From contig CANLZP010000001.1 in assembly GCA_947495695.1 (NCBI GenBank), forward strand, positions 143,069 to 207,068: a stretch of DNA of 64,000 bases, written 5' to 3'. The position numbers and the translations under genes are program-made. The stretch is from an uncultured Erythrobacter sp. GTDB taxonomy: Bacteria; Pseudomonadota; Alphaproteobacteria; Sphingomonadales; Sphingomonadaceae. A model generated the notes under the pieces. The model saw only the letters and a list, made by a program, of their open reading frames with translations. It made no database searches and was not told the DNA's origin. Below are positions 3,627 through 31,857 of this stretch, piece after piece (position 1 is the first letter of the stretch; each line of letters opens with the position of its first letter).

Positions 3627-3655
3627 AACGTCCGCAATCGGGTGGAAAGCGGATC
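3627..3655. repeat. Dispersed ~30 bp imperfect palindrome (reference copy)
   Basis: AACGTCCGCAATCGGGTGGAAAGCGGATC; first 11 nt identical to the reverse complement of 19717-19727. Confidence 0.7.
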
Positions 3656-3744
3656 AGATTATGGACGAGATACTCTGTCTACTCATATTGCGATGCAGGG
3701 CCAAACACCCCTCACTTTCAATCGCCACGAGATCATAAATGATC

Positions 3745-18905: not shown

Positions 18906-19140
18906 TGTACCCTTCCCTGGCCCGTGCGCGGGCCGATCCAGCGTGAACAGAATCCTTTGATGGGTGGCGGGCAATTGCGCGTCGATGAACGGAATCGAAA
19001 ATACGGCGAACCGAGTCCTATGGTCGTCCAATGCCGGACATGGGCCATTTTCTTGGGCCGATCGCAATTTTTGTGAAGACTCAGCTTGCCGCCTTACCCA
19101 CTGCTCATTATAGCGCGCCCTTCGCATGCCAATGCGATGC

Positions 19141-19233
19141 GGAGACGTGGGTGAGTGGCTGAAACCAGTCCCCTGCTAAGGGACCATACTGTTTATAGCG
19201 GTATCGAGGGTTCGAATCCCTCCGTCTCCGCCA
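19141..19233 (+). tRNA. tRNA-Ser(GCT)
   Basis: Acceptor GGAGACG/CGTCTCC, anticodon arm GTCCC-CTGCTAA-GGGAC, long variable arm, GGTTCGAATCC, encoded CCA. Confidence 0.97.
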
Positions 19234-19667
19234 CCATTTTGTGTAATCTTTTGACTTTAAGATTGAATTTTTCTCTCGCTCCTTGGGCCCCACATTAAGC
19301 CCCACACAAAAGCTTGGCTGCGCGCCCTGCGACAGGGTAATTCTATTACTGATATTGCGGGCAAACTGAGCTCGACGAGGCCTGGAGAGGGAATGCTTGA
19401 GCTTAGCCACTCGCTGCCTTGCCGATACGGACAGCTTGGTGCCGACAAGAAAGAATTCTTTTTCGGGAGAGAGAGCCCCATGGGGGTTGGATCAAGACAA
19501 GGGTGGGGTATGTTCATGGTTGCTCACGAAGGATTTCCCAAAAACGGCTCAACTTATAGTCAACGAGACACTCGTTGAGATTTGCAACACAAGGAACGAT
19601 TGGATGTGAGAAAGTGGTCTTTCTGCTAGTTTTCTAGCGTCAGCCTTCGCTCACAACAGGCCAGAAT

Positions 19668-19782
19668 CTGACAGTCCGCTTACGACCCAGAAGCTGCCGT
19701 TCCTTTCACGACCCAGTTGCGGACGTTAAGCATCTGCTCAAGATTTAGGGGATGCTCGGGCTGCCTTGGATCGGGAAGGGAC
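19668..19782. repeat. Composite cluster of three palindromic repeat units
   Basis: CTGACAGTCCGCTTACGACCCAGAAGCTGCCGTT, CCTTTCACGACCCAGTTGCGGACGTTAAGCATC and an inverted TGGATCGGGAAGGGAC. Confidence 0.7.
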
Positions 19783-19995
19783 TTATATTCTCGAAAGCGT
19801 GCTACCTAAAATTGAGGGCTGAATTTCGAATGCTAGTATTCATCCCTCGAGGAATTTCGGAACGGACTGAGCGGCCTATTTGCATTTGTTCAACCGCGAC
19901 TCACTCCTTTGCCCAAGATCAATAGACATGAGCGGAAACAGTCCTTACTGAATTGGGGGAGAGGGGCTGAAGATGGTAGACTTTGGGGCGGTACT

Positions 19996-21252
19996 ATGAT
20001 GGCCGGCGAAGGTACTGCAAAGGGCTGGAAATCAAAAGTAGCACTCTTCCTTCCAGGAATATTCCTTGTTGGCTTCAACATCGGAACCGGCAGCGTCACG
20101 ACCATGGCTTCGGCTGGCGCGAATTTCGGCATGGCGCTTCTATGGACGGTGCTGATCTCATGCGCCGCGACCTATCTGATGGTTGCGACATATGGTCGCT
20201 ACACTTTAGTCACGGGTGAGACTGCGCTCGAGGCATTTCGGAAACATATTCACCCAGCCGTCGGGCTGTTCTTTATCGCCGCCCTTAGCGTAGGCGTGTT
20301 TGCAAGCCTTATGGGCGTGATGGGGATAGTGGCCGAAATCAGCTTTGAATGGTCGAAGACTTTCATCCCAGGTGGCGTAAAGCCGATCTATTGGGCAGCG
20401 ATCTTTTGCTCGGTCGCCTATTTCATATTCTGGAGCGGCCACACGCAGGTTTTTGAGCGCATTTTGGCCGTGGTTGTAGCCATTATGGGCGTGAGCTTCG
20501 TGCTCAATTTCTTCATCCTCATGCCGCCTGTCTCGGCGATGGCCGCAGGGCTCATCCCATCGGTGCCGGATACTGGGTCGAGCGAGGCGGGACCTTTGCT
20601 GCTTGTCGCATCGATGGTCGGCACCACGATCTTCTCGGGGCTATTCATCATGCGCACAACCTTGGTGAAGGAGGCAGGCTGGACGATCGCACAGGACAAA
20701 CAACAACGGCGCGATGCGGCATTCGCCGCAATCATGATGTTCGTCATCAGCGCATCGATTATGGCGGCCGCAGCGGGGAGCCTATTCGTGGAGGGCATTA
20801 CGCTAGACAGCGCATCGAAAATGATCGGGTTGCTGGAGCCGCTTGCTGGACCGTTGGCTGTCTCAATCTTTGCCATCGGAATTATTGCGGCAGGGGTCTC
20901 GTCTCAGTTTCCGAACCTAATTCTCATTCCATGGCTCATTTGCGATTTTCGCAGCACGCCGCGCGACATGACGATCTGGAAATACCGCCTATTCGTGGGT
21001 ATCATTTCCCTGCTTGGGCTTGTCGTACCTCTTTTTGAGGCAAGACCGGTTTTGGTCCTTATCTTGAGTCAGGCATTCAATGTGGCGCTTTTGCCGATGA
21101 CGGTCGCGTGCATTTTCTATCTCGGCAATCGCAATGACTTGATGGGTGAATACCGCCATTCATGGCTGACCAATGTTGGGCTTGGCGCGATATTCTTCTT
21201 CTCACTCGTAACCGGCTATATGGGCTTTCAGGGCCTAATGGGCATGCTTTGA
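19996..21252 (+). CDS. NRAMP-fold transporter lacking the DPGN motif (YcsG-like)
   Basis: GFNIGTGSVTTMASAGANFG, ASMVGTT; about 11 TM segments. Confidence 0.8.
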   Translation: MMAGEGTAKGWKSKVALFLPGIFLVGFNIGTGSVTTMASAGANFGMALLWTVLISCAATYLMVATYGRYTLVTGETALEAFRKHIHPAVGLFFIAALSVGVFASLMGVMGIVAEISFEWSKTFIPGGVKPIYWAAIFCSVAYFIFWSGHTQVFERILAVVVAIMGVSFVLNFFILMPPVSAMAAGLIPSVPDTGSSEAGPLLLVASMVGTTIFSGLFIMRTTLVKEAGWTIAQDKQQRRDAAFAAIMMFVISASIMAAAAGSLFVEGITLDSASKMIGLLEPLAGPLAVSIFAIGIIAAGVSSQFPNLILIPWLICDFRSTPRDMTIWKYRLFVGIISLLGLVVPLFEARPVLVLILSQAFNVALLPMTVACIFYLGNRNDLMGEYRHSWLTNVGLGAIFFFSLVTGYMGFQGLMGML

Positions 21253-21265
21253 TGGAGTTAGGCTG

Positions 21266-22447
21266 ATGCGCGAATCCTGGCGTTGGTTTGGGCCAAGCGA
21301 TCCGGTCTCGCTGGAGGAAATTCGCCAAACTGGTGCGACCGATATTGTGAGCGCGTTGCACGATATCCCGATCGGCGAGCCATGGCCGCGCGAACAGATT
21401 GCGGCGCATCGCGCAATGGTCGAGCAAGGCAATGTGCCAGGTTCAATTTTGCACTGGACCGTGGTCGAAAGCATCCCTGTTCATGATGACATTAAGATCG
21501 CCTCGCCCGGGTGCGACGCCTATGTCGATGCGTGGATCGAAAGCATTAGGAACCTTGCGGCGGAGGGCATCAAGACCATCTGCTACAACTTCATGCCCGT
21601 TATTGATTGGACGCGAACAGACCTGCGACACCAACTTCCGAATGGCGCATATGCGCTGAAATTTGATCAGGAACGCTTTGCGGCATTTGATCTTTTCATC
21701 CTCAAACGAGCGGGCGCGGAGGCTGACTACAGCGAGGTCGAACTTGCCCGCGCAAGCGCCGCATTTGAAGCGATGTCAGCGGAGGATGTCGCTGGCCTTA
21801 CCAACACGATCATTGCCGGTCTTCCAGGTAAGATGACAGATGCCTATTCGCTAGACGATTTTCGCGCGATGTTGGCGCGCTACAACGGGATCAGCCATAA
21901 CCAACTGCGTGCAAATCTCGTCCAGTTCTTGAAGCGTGTACTGCCCGCCGCAGAGAAACTTGATGTGAAGCTCGCGATCCATCCCGATGATCCACCATGG
22001 AGCATGTTTGGTCTCCCGAGGGTCATCTGCACGCCAGCCGACCTGGATATGCTGTTTGAGGCTGCACCAAGCCGGTCAAACGGCATTACTCTGTGCGTCG
22101 GCACGTTTGGCAGCCGGCCAGACAACAATTTGCCGCAAATGGCGCGCGATTACCGCGATCGAATTCACTTTGCCCATTTACGTGGTGTTTCGCGCGACCC
22201 TGAGGAAGCACGCACATTTGTTGAGGCAAGCCATTTGGACAGCGATATCGACATGCTCAGCGTGATCCGCAATCTGCTCGCCAATGAGCGGGCCACGAAC
22301 CGTGAGATCTTCGTCCGACCCGATCACGGCCATTTGATGATGGGAGATATCTCAAAGGAGACCAATCCTGGCTATTCGGCGATCGGAAGGATGAAAGGTC
22401 TGGCGGAAATACGCGGCGTTATCCGCGCTTTGTCCTCCCCCGTTTAG
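21266..22447 (+). CDS. uxuA: Mannonate dehydratase
   Basis: MRESWRWFGPSD, VVESIPVH, CYNFMPVIDWTRT, AIHPDDPP, RPDHGH, PGYSAIGRMKGLAE. Confidence 0.96.
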   Translation: MRESWRWFGPSDPVSLEEIRQTGATDIVSALHDIPIGEPWPREQIAAHRAMVEQGNVPGSILHWTVVESIPVHDDIKIASPGCDAYVDAWIESIRNLAAEGIKTICYNFMPVIDWTRTDLRHQLPNGAYALKFDQERFAAFDLFILKRAGAEADYSEVELARASAAFEAMSAEDVAGLTNTIIAGLPGKMTDAYSLDDFRAMLARYNGISHNQLRANLVQFLKRVLPAAEKLDVKLAIHPDDPPWSMFGLPRVICTPADLDMLFEAAPSRSNGITLCVGTFGSRPDNNLPQMARDYRDRIHFAHLRGVSRDPEEARTFVEASHLDSDIDMLSVIRNLLANERATNREIFVRPDHGHLMMGDISKETNPGYSAIGRMKGLAEIRGVIRALSSPV

Positions 22448-22473
22448 TCAGCCAAATCTGCTGAGCTCGGACT

Positions 22474-22504
22474 AGGTCTGCTTTCCACCCCAATTCCAGC
22501 CATT
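22474..22504. repeat. Palindromic repeat family copy (minus orientation)
   Basis: Reverse complement AATGGCTGGAATTGGGGTGGAAAGCAGACCT aligns with the 3627 copy; AGGTCTGCTTT recurs at 22536. Confidence 0.65.
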
Positions 22505-22630
22505 GAGCCTTAGCCAAAGCTCAGCCGGAAGGCGAAGGTCTGCTTTAAGGCAAAGCTGTTGCACCTAAAGACTAGCCGCTAACCTTCGATAATCCCCCCT
22601 TATCGAAACCCAAAAAAATTGCTTACTTCT

Positions 22631-22695
22631 GGTCTGCAATGCGCCCCAGTCCAAGACGTAAGCATCCGAGATCTTAGTTCCGGAAAGCAGACATT
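22631..22695. repeat. Composite repeat unit directly upstream of the recombinase
   Basis: GGTCTGCAATGCGCCCCAGTCCAAGACGTAAGCATC...GGAAAGCAGACATT; shares CCCAGT....GACGT(T)AAGCATC with 19711-19734. Confidence 0.65.
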
Positions 22696-22721
22696 CTTCG
22701 AGGCCATTCCGGCCAAGGAGA

Positions 22722-23360
22722 ATGAAAATGACCTACTCACACTTTGACCCCGCTGCTCAAAATCGAGTGCCGTGGAATTTTGGAGCGAAGATCGGGCCTA
22801 AGCGTCCATTCAATCAGAAGCAGATCTGGGCGATCCGTTTCTTCTTAGATCGCGAAGAGCGCTTTCGCGATCGAGCGCTGTTCGATCTGGCGATTGATAG
22901 CAAGCTGCGAGGCTGTGATCTCGTCGAGTTGAAGATCGGCGATTTGGTCAGCGGTCCGGACATCAGGACGCGAGCAACAATCACGCAGCGAAAGACAGGT
23001 AGGCCAGTCCAGTTCGAGATCGCAGCTGACGCGCGTGCAAGCTTGTTTGCCTGGCTGGAGCTCAGAGGCGGTGACGTCGAGGACTTTGTCTTTCCGAGCC
23101 GAGTTGATCCCGCTCGCCACTTGAGCACGCGACAATACGCTCGGCTTGTTGATGAGTGGGTGGCAGCTATTGGATTGCGGCCCGAGGAGTATGGCACTCA
23201 CTCGCTGCGCCGCACCAAAGCCTCGATAATCTACAAGGCGACCGGAAACATCCGCGCGATCCAGATCCTGCTGGGCCATTCAAAAATCGAAAACACAGTT
23301 CGCTACTTGGGTGTGGACATTGAGGACGCCCTCACTCTTGCCGAGAAAACCGAAATCTGA
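22722..23360 (+). CDS. Minimal (212 aa) tyrosine recombinase/integrase
   Basis: Catalytic R (SKLRGCDL), HSLR, LLGH and VRYLG residues; no N-terminal arm-binding or core-binding domain. Confidence 0.93.
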   Translation: MKMTYSHFDPAAQNRVPWNFGAKIGPKRPFNQKQIWAIRFFLDREERFRDRALFDLAIDSKLRGCDLVELKIGDLVSGPDIRTRATITQRKTGRPVQFEIAADARASLFAWLELRGGDVEDFVFPSRVDPARHLSTRQYARLVDEWVAAIGLRPEEYGTHSLRRTKASIIYKATGNIRAIQILLGHSKIENTVRYLGVDIEDALTLAEKTEI

Positions 23361-23370
23361 CCGCTGCTGG

Positions 23371-23395
23371 GCGCCAGCCACGACCTGGCTGGCGC
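23371..23395 (+). terminator. Perfect 10 bp hairpin after the recombinase stop codon
   Basis: GCGCCAGCCA-CGACC-TGGCTGGCGC; no U-tract. Confidence 0.45.
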
Positions 23396-23414
23396 TCGCT
23401 ATCGGGAGTGCTGA

Positions 23415-23430
23415 CTGACCGTCCGCTTAC
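23415..23430. repeat. Palindromic repeat family half-copy downstream of the recombinase
   Basis: CTGACCGTCCGCTTAC, 15/16 identical to CTGACAGTCCGCTTAC at 19668. Confidence 0.6.
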
Positions 23431-23509
23431 AATCAATCTTGGTCGCCTAATGGACGGAAGCTAGAAAATCGACTATCGAAAAATGAAGCTGGATGGCCTT
23501 ACCAAGGCG

Positions 23510-24451
23510 CTAACGAACCAGCCTCTGGTGCGCACCAAATCCACGTAGCGCCATATCCTCGACAATCGCAGAGAGATGAATAGCGGATGGCGGGAGCGAC
23601 CGGTCCTGCCGCGTGACTATCGTCCCAGCGACTTCAACAGGCATCAACTGATCCAGCGTAGAGAGAACTGCTACTTTGCCCGCATGAATTTCCTGCCTGA
23701 TCACAGCCTCCGGGAGTAGGCCCAAAATATCGGTATTGGTCAGCAACTGGCGAAGCAGGCCAAGCTCATGGGTCGTCAGGAAGATCTCTCTCAAAGATGA
23801 AATCGATTCAAACTGCGCGGGAAATGCGTCAACGAATTGCTTGAGAAACCAGTCCGGCACCTCGGACCCTCCATAAGGATAGGAGATAAGGTCTGAAACT
23901 TCGAAAGTGCTCTTTTTGGTGAGCGGATGTCCCGCCCGGCAAGCAAAAATTGGTGGCACCAATGGAAAATTCCGATAGTCGAATTGATCGCTATGACGGT
24001 CCGGCGACAGTCCGATGAACATATCGATTCTGTCTCTCGAAAGATCGTCTTCCATCGAGCGCCAGTTGTGTTCTAGGGTCGTGAATTGGAGTTCCGGAAA
24101 TTTTGCGAGCAGGGCGGCCATTGCGGGAGCAAGCAGGCCCTCTGTGATCGCAGTGTCGACCCCTATGATAAGCCGGCCCTGCTTTAGGTTTTCCATCAAG
24201 GCGATGTCGCGTCTTGCCTGTGAAACCAATTCAACCGATTGGCGCGCTGCGACCAAGAGGCGCTCACCATATGCTGTCGGTGTGGTCTTGCGCTTCTTGC
24301 GCTCGAACAATTGGGTTCCGTATTGCTCTTCGAACTTGGCAACGGTTTGACTCAGTGCACCGTGGGTGATGCCAAGTTTGTCTGCAGCACGCCGGAAATT
24401 ACCCAACTCGGCCAAAGTTATGAGCTGCCTAAATCGCCAAAGTTCGTCCAT
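23510..24451 (-). CDS. LysR family transcriptional regulator
   Basis: HTH LAELGNFRRAADKLGITHGALSQTVAKFEEQYGTQLFER. Confidence 0.94.
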   Translation of the reverse strand: MDELWRFRQLITLAELGNFRRAADKLGITHGALSQTVAKFEEQYGTQLFERKKRKTTPTAYGERLLVAARQSVELVSQARRDIALMENLKQGRLIIGVDTAITEGLLAPAMAALLAKFPELQFTTLEHNWRSMEDDLSRDRIDMFIGLSPDRHSDQFDYRNFPLVPPIFACRAGHPLTKKSTFEVSDLISYPYGGSEVPDWFLKQFVDAFPAQFESISSLREIFLTTHELGLLRQLLTNTDILGLLPEAVIRQEIHAGKVAVLSTLDQLMPVEVAGTIVTRQDRSLPPSAIHLSAIVEDMALRGFGAHQRLVR

Positions 24452-24465
24452 CACTCACTCCATTT

Positions 24466-24482
24466 GGATAGCTATTCTAACC
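24466..24482. promoter_or_regulatory. LysR-type operator (copy 1)
   Basis: GGATAGCTATTCTAACC, a T-N11-A-type dyad; near-identical copy at 31606. Confidence 0.65.
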
Positions 24483-24582
24483 TTATTGCCTGAAATAGAT
24501 AGATTGATGATCCTGCAATTCTGAAATGAACCGATCGCGCCTGCCGCGCCGATCAGGAAAGTGTCATTCAAGGGAGCGGGAT

Positions 24583-27078
24583 ATGAAAAGCGCATTGTTC
24601 ACAACAGTTTCTATCGTCGGCTTGGCAGCCGCCCAACCAGTTTACGGACAGTCAGTCGAAACCAGCGAAGGCGCGGAGGGTGTGCCTGCATCCGAGCAGC
24701 GCGATGAAATTCTCGTGATTGCCCAGCGGCGCGAACAAGACGTTCAAGATGTGCCGATCGCCATCTCGGTCTTTTCCGATGAAGATCGCGATCGTCTGGG
24801 AATTCGCACGATTCAGGACATGTCTAACTTCACCCCCGGACTCAGCTTTTCGGCTTCGCTCGATCGGCTTTCGATCCGCGGCATTGGCCGGCTGACCAAT
24901 ATTATCGGCACCGACCCGGGTGTAGCTACTTACAATGACGGCTTCTACACGGCTTCGGCCGCCGAGGCGTCCAAGACGCCGATGTTTGTTGAGCGTGTCG
25001 AAGTGCTGCGTGGGCCTCAGGGCACTTTGTATGGACGAAATTCGATCGGCGGGTCGCTCAATGTCGTCTCGAAGCGTCCAACCGACGAATTTGAAGGCGA
25101 AGTGCGCGCGACTGTCGAAAGTTTGGGTTTCTGGATCGGAGAGGGCTACCTCTCTGGTCCGATCACTGATGAGTTGAGAGCGCGTGTCAGCGTTCAGGTC
25201 GGGCCCCGCTTTTTTGACGAGCCGTATACCAATATTTCCGGCCTCGAAGGCGAAGGGACACTCGATCGGTTTCTTGTCGAGGGGCAACTGGAATGGGACA
25301 TTTCAGACAGCACCGAATTGTGGCTAAAATATTCCCACGCCGAATGGGATGACCACAACCGCACTGGAGGCTTGGTTACGCCGTTTTCTACAACCGAGGT
25401 TCTGCCCGAAGGACTCGTGCCGAGTGCGGCCTTCGGGTATGCGGTTGCGTCTCCGGGTGTGACCGATCCGCGGTCTTTCGATGCCAATACCCGCGCCAGC
25501 CAAAAATTAACGGACAACCACAATATCGTCGCTCACCTGACCGCGGATATGGGCGGTGTCACTGTCAAATATGTCGGTGGCTATTCGCAGTATTTTTACG
25601 AGCAGATTTCGGACTACGATTTCACGAGCGTGGATTCTGTCACAACTGGTGCGGGAACATTGGCTGCGCTGAGCCCCGCTTTCGCTGCATTCACCTACAC
25701 TTACAACCCGACCTATGTGCAGGAATACATCGAGGACAAGAGCTACTATAGCAACGAGATCACCCTATCGAACAGCGACCCAGCCGCGTTCAATTGGATC
25801 GTTGGCCTCTACCAATATCACGAAGATTTCTCACAGCCGATCACTCAATTCGTCGATGCAGATGGGTCAGACAATCTGAGTGCCGCGATCGTAGCACCGA
25901 TCTGTCTGGGCCAGTTTGGCATTCCAACCGCGACCTGTGCCACCAATCCCCGCCGCTCATTTTACGAAGGCAGAAGCAATCTCGAGATCGACGGGTTAGC
26001 TGCTTTCGGTCAGGCGGATTTCGAGGTGTCGGACGGGCTAAAGCTCACGGTAGGCCTGCGCTATTCGCGTGACGAGAAGAAGGGCGATGAATCTTTCCGT
26101 CTTGTTGGTTGGAACCCCACCGATCCGACGGTTGATCCGGTTGGCTGCTTCGGGTTTGGTTGCGGGCCTTTCACGCCGGCATTCGATGTGACCGTTCCGG
26201 TCCTCAACACAGTATTTCCGGGCTTGACTGGATCTGGCGCCCAAACCCGTTCATTCGAGGATGACTGGGACGGACTTTCGTGGCGCCTTGGCCTTGATTA
26301 TGCGCCAAATCCCGACACTTTGATATTCGGCAGCTATTCGCGCGGCATCAAATCCGGCGGTTTCAATCTTGGTGTCTATTCCGCAAATGCTGTGGTCGAC
26401 AAAGAGGAAGTCGATGCGTTTGAAATCGGTATCAAGAGCCGTCCAGCTTACGGCTTTACGCTGAATGCGACTGCATTCCATTACGTCTATGATGGTTTGC
26501 AAGTTCCGATCGAGGTTGAAACCGGCGGGATTGGCCTCGGCAATCTGTTCAATGTGCCGACGTCGAAGTCGACCGGTTTTGAACTTGAGACATCCTGGGA
26601 AGCCACCGACTGGCTCGAATTCAATGCCAACTACGCCTATCTCGATGCGCGGATCACTCAGATCGATATGCTCTTTGATGATCCAAATCTGCCGGGCAAC
26701 AATCTGATCAGCATTGATGGCAACCGCTTGCCGGCATCGTCAAAGCACAAATTTTCCGTGTCAGGCCTGATCGACGTGCCGCTTGCGCAGGGGGACCTGT
26801 TCTTTGCGGGGAGCTACGTCTATCGCTCAAACGCCTACTACGGTGTTTTTGACAATCCAAACTACCGCGCTCCGGGTTGGGATCAGGTGGATCTGCGTGC
26901 GACATATGTGGCACCCGACAGGAACATCCGCTTGATCGCTTATGTCCGCAATGTCTTCGATACGCTTGGCTATGACGGTGCAGATGCACTGGAAGGAAGC
27001 CGGTCTTCGCGTTTTGGCCAGACGTTGAGCTACACTCCGCCGCGCAGTTTTGGCGCAGAGGTTCAGTTCAGCTTTTGA
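24583..27078 (+). CDS. TonB-dependent receptor
   Basis: Signal peptide, VIAQRREQ, ERVEVLRGPQGTLYGRN, C-terminal PRSFGAEVQFSF. Confidence 0.96.
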   Translation: MKSALFTTVSIVGLAAAQPVYGQSVETSEGAEGVPASEQRDEILVIAQRREQDVQDVPIAISVFSDEDRDRLGIRTIQDMSNFTPGLSFSASLDRLSIRGIGRLTNIIGTDPGVATYNDGFYTASAAEASKTPMFVERVEVLRGPQGTLYGRNSIGGSLNVVSKRPTDEFEGEVRATVESLGFWIGEGYLSGPITDELRARVSVQVGPRFFDEPYTNISGLEGEGTLDRFLVEGQLEWDISDSTELWLKYSHAEWDDHNRTGGLVTPFSTTEVLPEGLVPSAAFGYAVASPGVTDPRSFDANTRASQKLTDNHNIVAHLTADMGGVTVKYVGGYSQYFYEQISDYDFTSVDSVTTGAGTLAALSPAFAAFTYTYNPTYVQEYIEDKSYYSNEITLSNSDPAAFNWIVGLYQYHEDFSQPITQFVDADGSDNLSAAIVAPICLGQFGIPTATCATNPRRSFYEGRSNLEIDGLAAFGQADFEVSDGLKLTVGLRYSRDEKKGDESFRLVGWNPTDPTVDPVGCFGFGCGPFTPAFDVTVPVLNTVFPGLTGSGAQTRSFEDDWDGLSWRLGLDYAPNPDTLIFGSYSRGIKSGGFNLGVYSANAVVDKEEVDAFEIGIKSRPAYGFTLNATAFHYVYDGLQVPIEVETGGIGLGNLFNVPTSKSTGFELETSWEATDWLEFNANYAYLDARITQIDMLFDDPNLPGNNLISIDGNRLPASSKHKFSVSGLIDVPLAQGDLFFAGSYVYRSNAYYGVFDNPNYRAPGWDQVDLRATYVAPDRNIRLIAYVRNVFDTLGYDGADALEGSRSSRFGQTLSYTPPRSFGAEVQFSF

Positions 27079-27100
27079 GCTGGAGTGACAAGATGCGGTG

Positions 27101-27132
27101 CGTCCGGAGGTGGATTTGCAAACCTTCGGACG
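27101..27132. terminator. Hairpin between convergent TBDR and TauD genes
   Basis: CGTCCGGAGG...CCTTCGGACG inverted repeat. Confidence 0.4.
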
Positions 27133-27203
27133 TCGCCGATCGAGCTGAATTTGTGTGAAGGATGAGGCGCGAGGCCACGTCCATATAATGATGTGCAATG
27201 CCC

Positions 27204-28037
27204 TTATGTGGGCAAAGGAAATGGCTCTCCGGCCAGTGTGATGCGATGCATCAAGCGGCGTTCACCATCATAGTCATTCTCGGCAAGATGCCAGGTTAGA
27301 CGGTTATCCCAGATCGCAACCGAGCCTGGTTGCCAATTGAACCGGCATTGGAATTGCGGCTGTTGAGCATGGTGGAACAAGACTCTTAGAAATTCCTCGC
27401 TTTCCTCGCGCGCCAATCCTTCCAAAGCAATTGTGTGTGCCGGATTCACATACAGGATCTCCGCGCCCGTCTGCGGATGACGCACCATCACCGGATGGGT
27501 CGCCGAACCGACATCATCCGAACCCTTAAGAGAGCTGGCAAGATCGGTCCTCGAATAATAGCCGTCCCGGCCATAGATATGGGCATTGGAATGTACCGCT
27601 CTTAGCTGCTTTGCGCGCTGTTTGAGCGGATCAGGCAAAGCGCTCCATGCGGCGTGCATATTGGCAAACAACGTGTCGCCGCCTTTTGTCGGCAATTCGC
27701 GGGCGACAAGGATGGATCCAAGCGCAGGTGCAACATCATAGCTGTGATCAGTGTGCCAGCCGCCGCCGATATTCGTGGTTTGGTCGGCTTCCTTGCGCAC
27801 CTCGGCAATCTCAGGAAACCCTTCAACCGGCATGAAGAATTTGTTGAGGACGAGGTCGCCGAAACTCTTCGCAAAGGCCAAATGCGCTGCCGGTGCAAAG
27901 TCCTGATCTCTAAAGAATAAGACACCGCGCTGCGCTAGCAATTGCCGCATTTGATCGATTTCTGAATCGCTGGCATTGGCCAGTTGGACTCCTTCGATCA
28001 AAGAGCCGCAAGATTGTGACCAGTCGCTGGCTTTCAA
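27204..28037 (-). CDS. TauD/TfdA family Fe(II)/2-oxoglutarate dioxygenase
   Basis: GWHTDHSY (HxD), GGDTLF, AIWDNRLTWH, RLMHR. Confidence 0.93.
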   Translation of the reverse strand: MKASDWSQSCGSLIEGVQLANASDSEIDQMRQLLAQRGVLFFRDQDFAPAAHLAFAKSFGDLVLNKFFMPVEGFPEIAEVRKEADQTTNIGGGWHTDHSYDVAPALGSILVARELPTKGGDTLFANMHAAWSALPDPLKQRAKQLRAVHSNAHIYGRDGYYSRTDLASSLKGSDDVGSATHPVMVRHPQTGAEILYVNPAHTIALEGLAREESEEFLRVLFHHAQQPQFQCRFNWQPGSVAIWDNRLTWHLAENDYDGERRLMHRITLAGEPFPLPT

Positions 28038-29296
28038 ATCACACTCCCCGACAGGAAAGTTACAGCAGCATAGGCTGGGTCTGGATACTCATAAAACCCT
28101 TTGCCCACCTGCAAGCCGGATCGACCTTGCGCAAGCTGATCGATCAGGCATTTATGCACCTTGCCTGCATTCTCCGGCCCTGCAAGTGGTCCTGTCACGT
28201 GGAACAGTGTCAATGCGCGCTCCAATCCGATTTCATCCAAGATAGCGAAAGGTCCTTTGGCCTGTCGGGTGGCCGCAATCCAAGCGCGATCGACATCGTG
28301 GGGCCGCGCTACGTCATTGGTTGCGATCAAGACTGCATTCTGAGTCCATGCCGATGTCAGAGCATAGTCGGCCAAAGACGTTTCGGGATGAGCTTGGAGA
28401 AAGTCGGGCGCGGCATAAGCGGGGTCAGGATAAGTATAGAACCCGCGACCGCTCCTCATCCCAAATCGCCCCGTCCCCACAACAGGTGCGAGAAAGGACA
28501 GGACCTTACGCTTCATCAGATCCATCAATGGTTGTTCCGGCATCGCCGGGCGGTTCTTCCAGCTATCATAGATCAGCCGCGTGCCGAACAGGTCCATCAT
28601 CCCGAACGGCCCCATCGGAGAACCCGTGCGCTTCATCCACGCCCGGTCAACCTCTTCAATGCTCGCTGCGCCATCGATGACCTGCAGCATAGCAGCCGCC
28701 AGCACAGGGCCGATCATAGCATTGAAAACATACCCCTTGTTCTCTTTTTTGAGGACAAGCGACACTCCACCGAGGTGTTGCACATAGTCCTGCAAACGTG
28801 AAAGTGTAGCCGGTGACGTCCGCGGACCGGGCACGATATCAAACAACATCGCTCCCAGATGCGAATGCAGCGCGGCAAAGCGGCTTCCATCAATGACCGC
28901 GTCCTCGATATCCGAAACCAAGAGAGATGAGCTGTTGGTGGTAAGGATCGTATCGGATGCCGCGTATCTCTCCAATTCGGCGAATAATTCGCGCTTCACT
29001 GCGAGATTTTCAAAAATGGATTCGCTGACTAGCCCTGCACCGTAAAGTGCCGCTTTCAGATCTTTCTGGATCGCGATCCGTGAAGAGGCGTCCTGCGCGG
29101 CTTTGGGCGAGATAAGTCCTGCTATCGCCATCTCTCCGGCTATCTCAGATACACGCTGTGGCACTTCGAGCAGGGAGTCCCATGCAATGTCGTAAACCAC
29201 CGCGTCGTAGCCAGCCAGCGCGGCTAAGAGCGCGTTGTAACACCCCATCGTGCCGCCACCGATGAAGCAGACATGACCTTCGCCGTGAGGCTTCAT
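28034..29296 (-). CDS. 3-hydroxyacyl-CoA dehydrogenase-like protein with duplicated C-terminal domain
   Basis: FIGGGTMG Rossmann motif, ESIFENLAVK, TTNSSS; two MGPFG/KGPFA...GxGFYxYP repeats. Confidence 0.85.
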   Translation of the reverse strand: MKPHGEGHVCFIGGGTMGCYNALLAALAGYDAVVYDIAWDSLLEVPQRVSEIAGEMAIAGLISPKAAQDASSRIAIQKDLKAALYGAGLVSESIFENLAVKRELFAELERYAASDTILTTNSSSLLVSDIEDAVIDGSRFAALHSHLGAMLFDIVPGPRTSPATLSRLQDYVQHLGGVSLVLKKENKGYVFNAMIGPVLAAAMLQVIDGAASIEEVDRAWMKRTGSPMGPFGMMDLFGTRLIYDSWKNRPAMPEQPLMDLMKRKVLSFLAPVVGTGRFGMRSGRGFYTYPDPAYAAPDFLQAHPETSLADYALTSAWTQNAVLIATNDVARPHDVDRAWIAATRQAKGPFAILDEIGLERALTLFHVTGPLAGPENAGKVHKCLIDQLAQGRSGLQVGKGFYEYPDPAYAAVTFLSGSVI

Positions 29297-30102
29297 TTGA
29301 GCGGCCTTGGCAGACGATCAGGAAGGATCAGATTGGTGCTGCCCTTAGTCAACGCAGCAGGCCGATAATCAAGAATTGGCAGCGACTTGAGAGCATTGAC
29401 GATATGGAATTGAGTCGGATTCTGCTCCCAGCTCAGATTTTTCCACTCGACCTTGCCTTCGCCCAGCATGATCTGCGTGATGTGGTTTTCGCTCGGGAAA
29501 GTTGTGTATTCGTCAAGTTTGGGTTCAAATGATCCAGCCTGCTGTATGTAGCGCCAGCCCATTGGATTATCTTTGCCCTTGAGCGCTTTCTCACTGGCGG
29601 CAATCTCCTCAAGTTCAGGCGCGCGCAGTCCAGAGACTTCGATATCGACAATCGTGTGTCCGAAATGGCTCGCATTGCAGCGCCAGACGTCATTGGAGAC
29701 GCTGTGGTCCGGAATATCGGCATAGACTTTGGGAATTCCCTGTAACTCGCGCCCGGTCAGGATTGGATCGGTCAGATTTTCCCAGATGACCAACGCAAAG
29801 GTCCCTCCAAGGGATTCGCCATCACTGCGATAAGTAACGTCGGCATTCACGCCGATCATGTTGTATCCCCTCCCGGCAAGCCAATCGACTTGTCGGTTGC
29901 AGGCATAGAAGACAGAGATGATCGGCTCGGCAGCTGGCTCGAATCCTTGCGGAAGCAACTGCGCCAATTGGCTGCCATCGGTTACATATGGAACAGTCAG
30001 CGCGGTCACGTCGCGATACCAGCCGGAACTGCCCGGACCGTGATAGCGCGCGCCGAAATGTGCCGGCATCATGTGGCTCTTAGTTGGATCACGCTTGAAC
30101 AC
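29293..30102 (-). CDS. Acetoacetate decarboxylase-like family protein
   Basis: LAQLLPQGFEP and GRELQGIPK (Schiff-base Lys position). Confidence 0.82.
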   Translation of the reverse strand: MFKRDPTKSHMMPAHFGARYHGPGSSGWYRDVTALTVPYVTDGSQLAQLLPQGFEPAAEPIISVFYACNRQVDWLAGRGYNMIGVNADVTYRSDGESLGGTFALVIWENLTDPILTGRELQGIPKVYADIPDHSVSNDVWRCNASHFGHTIVDIEVSGLRAPELEEIAASEKALKGKDNPMGWRYIQQAGSFEPKLDEYTTFPSENHITQIMLGEGKVEWKNLSWEQNPTQFHIVNALKSLPILDYRPAALTKGSTNLILPDRLPRPLK

Positions 30103-30114
30103 TCGATCTTCCTC

Positions 30115-31545
30115 TCAATCAGCCGGGGTTAGGGTTTGCGCGACATTGCGTTCATGAGCGGCGCGGTTGATTTTGTAGAGGCGCACGCAAAGCAATCGCA
30201 GGACCCAAAGCACCACAATCGCAATCAGGTAAGTCTTGCCAAATTCCTGCACAGTGCTGTCTGCAACCTGGCCTGGTTCGGCTCCCTCAGGGAAGTTGAC
30301 AACGGCAAGCACCAGCGATGCAGCGAAAATCCCCAAACCCTGCGTTGCCTTTGCCGAAAAAGTGATCGCTGCAAAGAACACACCTTCTGACCGACGCTTG
30401 GTCTTAACCTCGCTTTCTTCCACCAGATCGGCGATCATCGAGAACATCAGCACCTGAAATGAGATTATCAGGGTCATCTCGATCACCGCGACGACGAAAA
30501 TCAGTGGCAATAGGAACGATTGCCCATCTACCGGCATCGGCTCTAGAACGCCGAGCAAGCGCAGGGTGATCAGCACGGGTGACATGAACAATGTCGCGCC
30601 TGCCGCGATAAGCGCTCCATTGCGTTTACCGAACTGCTTGGTGAAGAACGGTGCAATCACCACCGCAAGTGCCGCTCCGACAAGCGATGCGAGGATCAGT
30701 ATGCTAATCTGTTCCTGCGTGAAGCCCCAGAAGAAGGAATTGATGTAGAGATTGAGGCTCATCGCAAGGCCGGTGGCAACCGATGAAAGGATGGTCGCCA
30801 TAAACAGTGCGAAGAACGACTTGCTTGTCAAAGTCTCAAGAATCTCAGCGAATATCAAACCCAGCTTCTTGGCCTGTTTCGCGGGCGCGGCCGGCAAGGT
30901 CGGGATCAATCGGTGCGTGCCGAGACTTGCCACTATGATCGAAACAAAGATCATTGCGGAGGCGATCAGACCATAGGTGGTGAAGCCGTCGCGATTGAAC
31001 AGGCCACTAGGATTGGCTTCATTGGGCGCTAGAATGACAGCCAGCGTAAAGACTGCGATCAGCGTCCCGCCGATCCAGCCAAAGAATGTGCGCCACGCCA
31101 TCAGTGACGTTCTTTCGTCGTAGTCGCGCGTCAGTTCCGCGGCTAGCGCAGAGCTTGGCACTTCATAGAGCGTGATAAGCGTGCGGATCAGGATCGATAG
31201 GACGACCAGATAGGCAAACAGCATATTGCCCGAAATGCCTTCTGGCGGGCTCCAAAGGAAGAAATAGGCAATCGCGACCGGTATTGCAGCGAAATACATC
31301 CATGGGTGCCTGCGCCCCCACCGGCTGCGGGTATTGTCGCTCAGATAGCCGACAAACGGATCGGAGAATGCGTCGAAGACCAGTGCGATAAGCAGCGCCA
31401 GCCCGACCAGTTCTGCTTCAACTCCAAGAATCTGTGAGTAGAACAACAACAGGAAGAAATCGAACCCGTTGTTCTTAACCCCATAGGCGATAGCTCCGAA
31501 ACCATACGCAAGCTTTGTTGCTATCGGAATCTTTGTGGTGGTCAA
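30115..31545 (-). CDS. MFS transporter (glycoside-pentoside-hexuronide type)
   Basis: KLAYGFG, DAFSDPFVGYLSDNTRSRWGRRHP, YDERTSL; likely TTG start at 31545 after GGAGAG. Confidence 0.9.
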   Translation of the reverse strand: MTTTKIPIATKLAYGFGAIAYGVKNNGFDFFLLLFYSQILGVEAELVGLALLIALVFDAFSDPFVGYLSDNTRSRWGRRHPWMYFAAIPVAIAYFFLWSPPEGISGNMLFAYLVVLSILIRTLITLYEVPSSALAAELTRDYDERTSLMAWRTFFGWIGGTLIAVFTLAVILAPNEANPSGLFNRDGFTTYGLIASAMIFVSIIVASLGTHRLIPTLPAAPAKQAKKLGLIFAEILETLTSKSFFALFMATILSSVATGLAMSLNLYINSFFWGFTQEQISILILASLVGAALAVVIAPFFTKQFGKRNGALIAAGATLFMSPVLITLRLLGVLEPMPVDGQSFLLPLIFVVAVIEMTLIISFQVLMFSMIADLVEESEVKTKRRSEGVFFAAITFSAKATQGLGIFAASLVLAVVNFPEGAEPGQVADSTVQEFGKTYLIAIVVLWVLRLLCVRLYKINRAAHERNVAQTLTPAD

Positions 31546-31605
31546 AGTCGCTCTCCAAGCTTTTCTGCTTGAGATCGCTACACGGCTAACCAGGTGCTTC
31601 AATAA

Positions 31606-31622
31606 GGATAGAATAGCTAACC
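31606..31622. promoter_or_regulatory. LysR-type operator (copy 2) upstream of the MFS operon
   Basis: Reverse complement GGTTAGCTATTCTATCC versus GGATAGCTATTCTAACC at 24466 (15/17). Confidence 0.65.
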
Positions 31623-31765
31623 GGTTTTGGTCTTGCTGCAGGCGGCTCCATGCGGCGAAATCACCGAGATTTATCGACTGAACCTAGCAAGATACGCACC
31701 CAACCAGAGGCCACATGCCAACTATGTGGTCATCGCCGTCAATTTGGGGCTTCGGTACGTTTGGA

Positions 31766-31849
31766 AATGACCGCTCATGGTGTCGTTAGCGGAATGGCGG
31801 CTCTTCGCGCTCACAGCCCCATGAGCAGACATTCCGCAATCGGCCCAAT
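31766..31849. repeat. Composite palindromic repeat element
   Basis: AATGACCGCTCATGG...CCATGAGCAGACATT (13/15 inverted repeat); aligns over about 40 nt with the reverse complement of 19688-19727. Confidence 0.7.
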
Positions 31850-31857
31850 ATCCGCCA

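Follow-up and report, generated by a model that had tools for sequence, protein, structure and literature searches.

Background

In Cre/loxP, FLP/FRT and Xer/dif, inverted arms surround an asymmetric spacer of 6-8 bp, and the pdif modules of Acinetobacter are blocks of genes bracketed by inverted recombination sites. Among integrons, clusters of attC sites without an integrase are common, and in REPtrons (REP, repetitive extragenic palindrome) the enzyme is RAYT, an HUH (Y1) transposase. In the integrative and conjugative elements of Pseudomonas syringae, Tn6212 is a 16-kb element whose first open reading frame (ORF) encodes a XerC-type recombinase, with boundary repeats that are also found around metal-resistance clusters (PMC3583860, PMC10945833). 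Here we describe a small tyrosine recombinase gene, and the two short sites between which it lies, in 64 kb of DNA from an uncultured Erythrobacter sp. (contig CANLZP010000001.1, positions 143,069 to 207,068; this whole stretch is called the window below). Probably this recombinase is the enzyme of a system, not described so far, by which marine alphaproteobacteria exchange modules. We read it, with a confidence somewhat better than even, as a site-specific recombinase that inserts or exchanges site-bounded units of DNA and works in the manner of integrons or of Tn6212, without being an IntI, Xer or Fim protein. A search by motif letters and by concept found no paper that describes the recombinase family or the sites, which, coverage being incomplete, is weak evidence.

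The recombinase unit and its sites

When positions 21000-25000 of the window were compared by blastn with 80 loci carrying homologs, only 22631-23410 (about 780 bp) aligned, and the neighbouring genes never did. This shared stretch, which consists of the gene, an upstream site and a downstream site, was found in more than 40 unrelated contexts. Its parts are the following.

22631 to 22655, forward strand: left site, GGTCTGC-AAT-GCGCCCC-AGTCC, that is, a variable arm in which G.C.GC is invariant, followed by three A/T-rich bases and a C-rich spacer of 7 bp
22656 to 22697, forward strand: conserved leader, CCAAGACGTAAGCATCCGAGATCTTAG..., which ends in a partner arm, GAAAGCAGACATTC (22684-22697)
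22695 to 22721, forward strand: stem-loop that sequesters the Shine-Dalgarno (SD) sequence, UCUUC-GA-GGCC-AUUCC-GGCC-AA-GGAGA, with the SD at 22715-22720
22728 to 23360 (longest ORF 22722 to 23360), forward strand: recombinase gene, encoding a tyrosine recombinase of 210 amino acids (aa), or 212 aa from the first ATG
23371 to 23395, forward strand: 3' stem-loop with a 10-bp stem (23371-23380 / 23386-23395), the 3' arm of which runs into the right site
23392 to 23415, forward strand: right site, in inverted orientation and degenerate, GCGCTCGC-TAT-CGGGAGT-GCTGAC

Both sites are imperfect palindromes of about 30 bp with the form GNCNGC-WWW / 7-bp C-rich spacer / WWW-GCNGNC; they are mutually inverted, their arms, (AT)GNCNGC-WWW, stand around an asymmetric 7-bp spacer, and the two spacers are unlike (GCGCCCC in the left site, one of the CACCCCC type in the right). 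Homology to the DNA of other loci begins at about 22631-22641, and in a set of 41 loci whose left flanks are unrelated, G11, C13 and G15 of the left site are invariant and C16 is conserved in at least 90%, followed by GCGCCCC. The right site reads GCGTCCGC-TTC-TGGGGGT-GAAAGCGGAC in homologs (consensus GCGTCCGCTTCTGGGGGTGAAAGCGGAC), of which the copy in the window is a degenerate version. The order kept among homologs is the arm G.C.GC, three A/T-rich bases, GCGCCCCAAT, a leader ending in GAAAGCGGACATTC, the stem-loop with the SD, the gene, the 3' stem-loop and the right site; Rhizobiales-type copies follow the same plan, with GTCCGG-AAA-CGGCCCC upstream and GGGGTGGAAAGCGGA downstream.

The first-pass annotation of this DNA, made from its letters alone, had placed at least four repeat units upstream of the gene and one downstream, and had named the absence of the motif from the flanks of homologs as an observation that would speak against it. 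The motif is present at both ends in homologs, so that members of the repeat family flank the gene from Sphingomonadales to Rhizobiales. All five units were recovered in the window as well: AGGTCTGCTTT at 22474 and 22536, GGTCTGCAAT at 22631, an inverted AAAGCAGACAT at 22684, and CGTCCGCTT about 60 nt after the stop codon. The two distal upstream ones (22474-22546), however, belong to a separate 136-bp repeat and not to the recombinase unit. Matches to AGGTCTGCTTT with at most one mismatch number three in the 64-kb window, all in one 220-nt stretch, against 0.81 expected window-wide. The repeats are not hairpins: within a locus the arm GNCNGC shows no complementarity to the arm GCNGNC, and the two look like putative inverted half-sites for the binding of a protein around an asymmetric spacer. 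The distal pair falls in the unit next to that of the recombinase:

22474 to 22615, forward strand: neighbouring unit, a site AGGTCTGC-TTT-CCACCCC-AATT followed by the 136-bp repeat

This non-coding repeat (22480-22615) has a second copy at C1:325670-325805, 95.6% identical and in reverse orientation, and its homology starts right after the site arm, at GTCYGC^TTTCCACCCC (here and below, ^ marks the junction).

Breakpoints at the sites

Three cases of breakpoints were found. In the first, the recombinase gene is set apart from what lies beside it: loci L017 and L030 share a 2.85-kb left flank at 87% identity and have recombinase genes that are 79% identical, L010 and L035 share a 2.8-kb flank at 90% with genes at 80%, and L017 and L024 share cargo at 91% with genes at 81%. 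Neither flank shares the history of the recombinase unit. The junctions of two more locus pairs, L016/L040 and L007/L034, could not be interpreted.

The second case concerns the DNA to the right of the recombinase unit, near tRNA-Ser (19141-19233), and involves three features.

23408 to 31808, no strand assigned: LysR cargo unit of 8.4 kb, with a LysR regulator, a TonB-dependent receptor, a TauD-like dioxygenase and others, both ends lying in sites
31766 to 31849, forward strand: composite site element, ATGGCGGC-TCT-TCGC^GCTCACAGCCCC...GCAGACATTC, then CCGCAATCGGCCCAA
19708 to 19805, forward strand: leader-like element without a recombinase gene, ACGACCCAGTTGCGGACGTTAAGCATC..., 85% identical to C2:118480-118577 and resembling the leader of the recombinase

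The cargo (23408-31808) is 94.1% identical to a contig of a Sphingomonadaceae metagenome-assembled genome (L121), and the DNA of the two differs past both ends. At the left end both genomes have arm-TAT-spacer^GTGCT(G/T)AC, the shared part starting at 23408 inside the right site of the recombinase unit, and at the right end the shared DNA stops at the arm-WWW of 31793-31808, within the composite element. Where the window has the recombinase unit, L121 has a gene-less miniature of about 95 nt, composed of a left site and the start of the leader, GCGGCGGC-TTT-GCGCCCCAGTCTCGGAC...GAAAGCGGCC, and then a right site. Among 15 congeners, tRNA-Ser and the gene upstream of it are conserved in all 15 and the region downstream is variable; the LysR cargo is absent from all of them, and a search for an empty site found nothing that aligns within 10 kb beyond tRNA-Ser and no clean empty site. 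As a whole, window positions 19233-31850 read as a chain of units, namely NRAMP-uxuA, the 136-bp repeat, the recombinase unit and the LysR regulon.

In the third case three genera, represented by Erythrobacter sp. NAP1 (L024), Qipengyuania sp. S6317L1 and Altererythrobacter sp. GH1-8 (loci L022 and L026), share at 99.7% identity a 7.05-kb element that consists of a recombinase gene and then an AcrB-family resistance-nodulation-division (RND) pump. It starts at ...GC-WWW^GCGCCCC, its three unrelated left flanks end in GTCAGC-TTA^, GGCTGC-GAG^ and GGCGGC-AAT^, and its common right end is ...GACCGTCAACTAACGGCCCAA^. GCGCCCC-type sites with a common orientation stand at either end. The Qipengyuania genome has an element-less site, ACCGTCCGGTTTCGGCCCAAG^, in the position orthologous to the right flank in Altererythrobacter.

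In all three cases the break lies between the arm-WWW and the C-rich spacer. That gene and sites make up a discrete unit with a history of its own, as the first-pass annotation had supposed, is borne out by the limits of the blastn alignments, by the mismatch in identity between flank and gene, and by the gene-less miniature.

The recombinase protein and its family

The ORF reported earlier is present, although its length of 212 aa applies to the first ATG only. The SD, AAGGAG at 22715-22720, lies 1 nt before ATG 22722 and 7 nt before ATG 22728, and since the second ATG is the start in most homologs, giving a length of 210 aa, the true start is probably ATG 22728 and the product a protein of 210 aa. 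In Pfam, residues 34-198 match positions 7-168 (of 172) of the PF00589 profile with 75.9 bits against a cut-off of 27.1, and the scan returned no domain besides PF00589 and no core-binding domain. The residues R63, K91, H160, R163, H186 and Y195 (212-aa numbering) are invariant or at least 90% conserved in 22-27 homologs and line up with the XerD motifs, which confirms that the catalytic set is complete. An alignment of the family profile with Escherichia coli XerD starts at XerD residue 125, i.e. it covers the catalytic domain alone; about 30-40 residues precede that domain, in contrast to the core-binding domain of about 100 aa of recombinases that have both a core-binding and a catalytic domain (Xer and Cre type).

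An AlphaFold2 (AF2) model built from a diverse alignment reached a predicted local distance difference test (pLDDT) score of 84.7, with residues 1-28 at low confidence and the rest in the canonical fold (an earlier model, from sequences 76-97% identical, had a pLDDT of 55 and was unusable). Foldseek matched it with probability 1.0 to XerA, XerH, VchIntIA, Tn1549 Int and Cre at query-normalised TM-scores of 0.6-0.73, the best structural matches being 270-350 aa long, i.e. longer by a core-binding domain. By score, profile match, catalytic set and fold together, the protein is a member of the tyrosine recombinase superfamily PF00589. The more specific NCBIfam models scored far lower than their cut-offs: XerA 57 bits (cut-off 220), XerC TIGR02224 56.1 (335), XerD TIGR02225 39.4 (330), the FimE-type invertase PRK09871 22.4 (222; E 7e-5, a weak match) and the integron integrase TIGR02249 20.9 (265; residues 132-198 only). 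Judged from its sequence, the protein thus falls outside IntI, Xer and Fim on the score of every model, and the IntI-specific insertion is excluded because 210 aa leave no room for it. Pfam, NCBIfam, the XerD alignment, AF2 and Foldseek therefore agree with the earlier description of a catalytic-domain-only enzyme that has no IntI insertion. The gene appears to encode a functional member of a large family of tyrosine recombinases of about 210 residues, which are made up of a catalytic domain and a short N-terminal tail, some 30 residues long and for the most part disordered.

More than 8000 proteins match, the best at 76-97% identity, and at E≤1e-30 the family forms 673 clusters at 50% identity. 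Close homologs are found in Erythrobacter, Qipengyuania, Altererythrobacter, Sphingomicrobium, Parasphingorhabdus, Mesorhizobium, Aminobacter, Devosia and Xanthobacter, and homologs of 40-58% identity on plasmids of Rhodobacterales and Vibrio. For pairs whose proteins are 96-98% and whose DNA is 81-85% identical, dN/dS is 0.01-0.04 at a dS of about 1-2, which is saturated; the protein is thus under extreme selective constraint. The gene is patchily distributed: within the family 43 of 151 genomes carry it, within the class 12 of 301, often in 2-4 copies and often as fragments. The genome under study has one intact copy, a distant paralog of 311 aa, and one truncated copy:

G000 C3:357811-358330 (L002/L087): truncated second recombinase copy, residues 1-126 with two TGA stops, left site and leader kept (TTTGCGCCCCAATTTCAGACATAGC...)

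The recombinase unit often adjoins the end of another integrative element. In nine of about 45 close loci, a DUF2924 gene and a gene for a large serine recombinase of 555 aa stand divergently just upstream of the small recombinase (L032 506-2735, reverse strand; also L009, L020, L021, L025, L029, L034, L043 and L046). On a conjugative plasmid of Vibrio alginolyticus (NZ_CP014052.1; L124 3986-4579) a homolog of 197 aa and 47% identity immediately precedes an AbiEii/DUF6088 pair and a type I restriction-modification system, and the DNA upstream of this homolog, GTCTGC-AAT-ATTTTTCAGCCCCC, resembles the left site of the window.

Probable RNA structures at the two ends of the gene

In 41 leaders, the SD hairpin (UCUYC..GGCC-loop-GGCC..GGAGA) is the only consensus structure found by RNAalifold. 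Compensatory changes are seen in two of its nine pairs, and variation is mostly C/U opposite G, which argues for a structure at the RNA level because such wobble is tolerated only in RNA. A longer leader hairpin, from the left arm to GAAAGCGGAC, was considered and rejected, its arms being non-complementary and without covariation and RNAalifold keeping only the SD hairpin. Downstream of the gene the hairpin noted earlier was found again, its 10-bp stem being perfect, and it is kept in homologs with compensatory changes in five of nine pairs and frequent G-U pairs. This 3' stem-loop is probably an RNA structure too; it has no T-run and is absent from the output of the intrinsic-terminator scan. 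Scans for sigma-70 promoters and intrinsic terminators gave nothing at the recombinase gene, and an Rfam scan of 19000-24000 gave tRNA-Ser only.

Gating of translation by a hairpin that hides the SD is found in many transposase genes. The SD hairpin is best read as such a gate, and the 3' stem-loop as a 3' end or stabiliser; going by their patterns of substitution, both would be structures of the mRNA and neither a DNA site.

Sites in this genome and in others

The generic site in this genome has the form ATGTCCGC-AAT-TGGGGTGG-AAA-GCGGACAT. The 17-mer TGGGGTGGAAAGCGGAC, allowing at most two mismatches, occurs 21 times in the 2.74-Mb genome vs 0 in shuffles. With a loose regular expression, sites were no commoner than in shuffles (52 matches vs 59-74), and the expression was used only for listing spacer classes, which include CCACCCC, GCGCCCC and CGACCCA.

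Sites cluster in same-orientation arrays behind unrelated genes, and like clusters were seen in other genomes. A clear case is G000 C2:323808-327554, where four sites each follow one of several unrelated co-directional genes (glutathione S-transferase (GST), hypothetical, metallo-beta-lactamase (MBL)-fold and WYL regulator). The larger region C2:321500-329500 (L084 3500-11500), in which DUF808-GST, hypothetical, MBL-fold, WYL regulator, hypothetical and M90 peptidase genes have same-orientation or composite sites between them, has the look of a cassette array, and no recombinase is near it. Window positions 3627-3660 hold a clean solitary site, AACGTCCGCAATCGGGTGGAAAGCGGATCAG, outside the island and past the end of a tetratricopeptide repeat (TPR) gene.

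Across the 151 genomes of the family, the same 17-mer search gave a mean of 4.3 sites per genome with the gene vs 1.6 per genome without it (p=2e-4). The difference is gone after subtracting one site for each copy of the gene (p=0.30), and nine of the 108 genomes without the gene hold at least five sites. A genome-wide link between repeats and gene thus finds no support once the unit's own sites are discounted, and on the corrected counts a REPtron-like dependence of repeat number on the recombinase was rejected. Integron arrays also commonly occur without an integrase, so that the lack of a link in counts does not refute a link between enzyme and sites, even though a possible support for it is lost.

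Proposed mechanism

The enzyme would bind the short arms as inverted half-sites. A catalytic domain alone would contact only the inner half-site, which would fit the short conserved G.C.GC-WWW, and strands would then be cleaved and exchanged at the boundary between arm and spacer, so that site-bounded units could be inserted or excised, or exchanged from one replicon to another. Like spacers on direct sites would lead to the excision or insertion of a circle, and inverted pairs or pairs with unlike spacers to cassette exchange. Inverted sites whose spacers differ stand on either side of the recombinase unit, and likewise of the LysR cargo, a geometry that would permit exchange through two crossovers but would not permit loss. 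The mRNA stem-loop that hides the SD would probably keep translation of the enzyme low. That the enzyme is the maker of the breakpoints, where within the site it crosses over, and what the spacer classes do are three points that we infer from the comparison of sequences.

Evidence against the proposal and alternative explanations

Several observations weigh against a recombinase that inserts or exchanges site-bounded units. The counts of sites do so, both through the loss of the difference after correction and through the site-rich genomes that have no gene. In the 7.05-kb element, the recombinase gene (L024 3001-3639, NAP1) has an in-frame stop, W111*, which is the same in L022, L023 and L026; because all copies have it, the element spread after the gene broke, and it was therefore moved in trans or by something else. 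Altererythrobacter sp. GH1-8 holds a second, uninterrupted copy of the recombinase (L038). The right site in the window is degenerate, with a spacer 3-4 nt too short, and the window's own copy may therefore be immobile. No circle, empty site or inversion was observed as a product of recombination. Metagenome contigs gave no joint at the unit, no circle and no inversion; their assemblies break at 22629-22632, and there is excess depth over the gene. Finally, homologous or illegitimate recombination can also produce breaks at short repeats, and the support from breakpoints consists of three cases and is not a genome-wide statistic. The earlier claim that this is the enzyme of the repeat system has thus been sustained in part: the gene is nested in conserved sites and belongs to a discrete unit, but no product of recombination was seen and no genome-wide link in counts was found.

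One may consider an alternative explanation, in which the repeats form an intergenic family of their own, REP-like or terminator-like, that serves some RNA or host function. The recombinase unit would do no more than land among them or carry copies, and the breakpoints would come from homologous or illegitimate recombination between repeats and not from the enzyme. We regard this as unlikely, yet it is the best of the alternatives. It would account for corrected site counts that are independent of the recombinase and for the abundance of sites in genomes without the gene; sites have a fixed orientation behind genes, as REPs or terminators do; the G-U pairs of the 3' hairpin, together with the SD hairpin, indicate selection at the RNA level nearby; and the 7.05-kb element moved with a broken recombinase gene. 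What it leaves unexplained is that both sites stay with the gene across orders while the flanks differ, and that the junction falls at the same position (arm-WWW^spacer) in independent cases. Moreover, the arms are not complementary and make poor hairpins, and RNAalifold finds no hairpin in the box. Arrays of sites that lack an enzyme are usual for integrons too, so that site-rich genomes without the gene need not favour this alternative over an exchange system.

Rather more doubtful is a second possibility, namely that the gene is the ordinary integrase of a larger island at tRNA-Ser, or of recombinase-first islands like Tn6212, and that the repeats are old att scars. The variable region after tRNA-Ser in congeners, from which the LysR block is absent, would fit an island, and the 7.05-kb element is indeed recombinase-first, followed by cargo, with like repeats at both ends, as has been described for Tn6212 (PMC3583860). 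Nonetheless, a distance of 3.5 kb separates the gene from the tRNA and the gene faces away from it, recombinase unit and cargo have separate histories, arrays of sites also occur far from any recombinase gene, and the protein has neither an arm-binding nor a core-binding domain.

An invertase of the FimB/FimE kind, which as a phase switch would flip a nearby segment or its own gene between inverted sites, resembles our protein in size and architecture, gives the weak PRK09871 match, and would go with the mutual inversion of the two sites around the gene. This analogy had been drawn by the first-pass annotation, and we find it very improbable: the PRK09871 score is 22 bits vs a cut-off of 222, wherever two loci have a flank in common their recombinase genes run the same way, without variants, the two sites have different spacers, and the patchy, multi-copy and pseudogene-rich spread fits a mobile element rather than a switch of the host. 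It is scarcely credible that the gene is a decaying and now functionless remnant, left from the 3' half of a phage-type integrase gene, in spite of its being about half as long as phage integrases and of the truncated copy with two TGA stops in the same genome, since the dN/dS of 0.01-0.04 already contradicts this, as do thousands of homologs of the same 210-aa length, the conserved ribosome-binding site and leader before the gene, and the complete catalytic fold of the model.

Implications

If the recombinase does insert or exchange site-bounded units, this would explain how, in marine sphingomonads and rhizobia, regulons, metal-efflux pumps and other blocks can move with base-pair precision when no transposase, phage-type integrase or integron is involved, and it would add a widespread recombinase family to the markers of mobile DNA. 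It would also show site recognition and synapsis by a tyrosine recombinase without a core-binding domain, possibly a compact tool for genome engineering. The "island" of the window at tRNA-Ser would become a chain of separately exchangeable units, and its annotation would have to be redefined accordingly.

A broader view can be put forward only tentatively, the chances being somewhat against it: that Alphaproteobacteria, and perhaps, to judge from the homologs of 40-58% identity on plasmids of Rhodobacterales and Vibrio, Proteobacteria at large, have a second platform for gene capture and module exchange that is independent of integrons. It would combine a clamp-less recombinase of 210 aa with lox-like 11/12-7-11/12 sites of several heterospecific spacer classes, and units of 0.1 to >8 kb (regulons, efflux pumps, the recombinase gene itself) would be swapped among chromosomes, islands and plasmids by natural recombinase-mediated cassette exchange, with gene-less miniatures serving as docking sites.

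Comparison with known systems

As in REPtrons, palindromic repeats are dispersed between genes and one enzyme gene is nested between copies; unlike in REPtrons, the enzyme belongs to PF00589 and is not an HUH Y1 protein, and the number of repeats does not track it. With FimB and FimE the recombinase shares a length of about 200 aa that is mostly catalytic domain, and the known members of that group act on short nearby sites; it differs from them in its mobile-element distribution, in the lack of orientation variants and in scores far below the cut-offs. The layout of the sites is that of Cre/loxP, FLP/FRT and Xer/dif, and unlike spacers would be heterospecific, as in engineered cassette exchange. 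The pdif modules resemble the units here in being blocks of genes between inverted sites. However, the core-binding domain with which Cre, FLP and Xer clamp DNA has no counterpart here. Xer proteins are housekeeping proteins of the host, and the XerC and XerD scores here are far below the cut-offs.

Elements of the Tn6212 type are similar in that the recombinase comes first and the cargo second, in their short boundary repeats or palindromes and in the near-identical copies found in divergent backgrounds. Such a layout is seen in the 7.05-kb element and not in the window's unit, and the likeness is one of arrangement. The repeats of Tn6212, AAATACGTTATCAC, are unrelated in sequence to the sites described here, and in our case recombinase and cargo units are separable.

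Compared with integrons, the recombinase lacks the IntI insertion and a core-binding domain, and there is no attI or Pc arrangement. The recombinase gene is itself one of the units. The window's sites are not imperfect hairpins with complementary arms of the attC type, as arm comparison and RNAalifold show, and because the arms are not complementary a folded single-stranded substrate like attC is unlikely. The units, at about 0.1-8 kb, can hold whole regulons. The resemblance to integrons lies in a tyrosine recombinase tied to short imperfect palindromes that would bound exchangeable gene units, in candidate arrays of same-orientation sites behind unrelated genes, with or without the enzyme, and in a crossover that would sit at a fixed point within the site and so yield hybrid junction sites.

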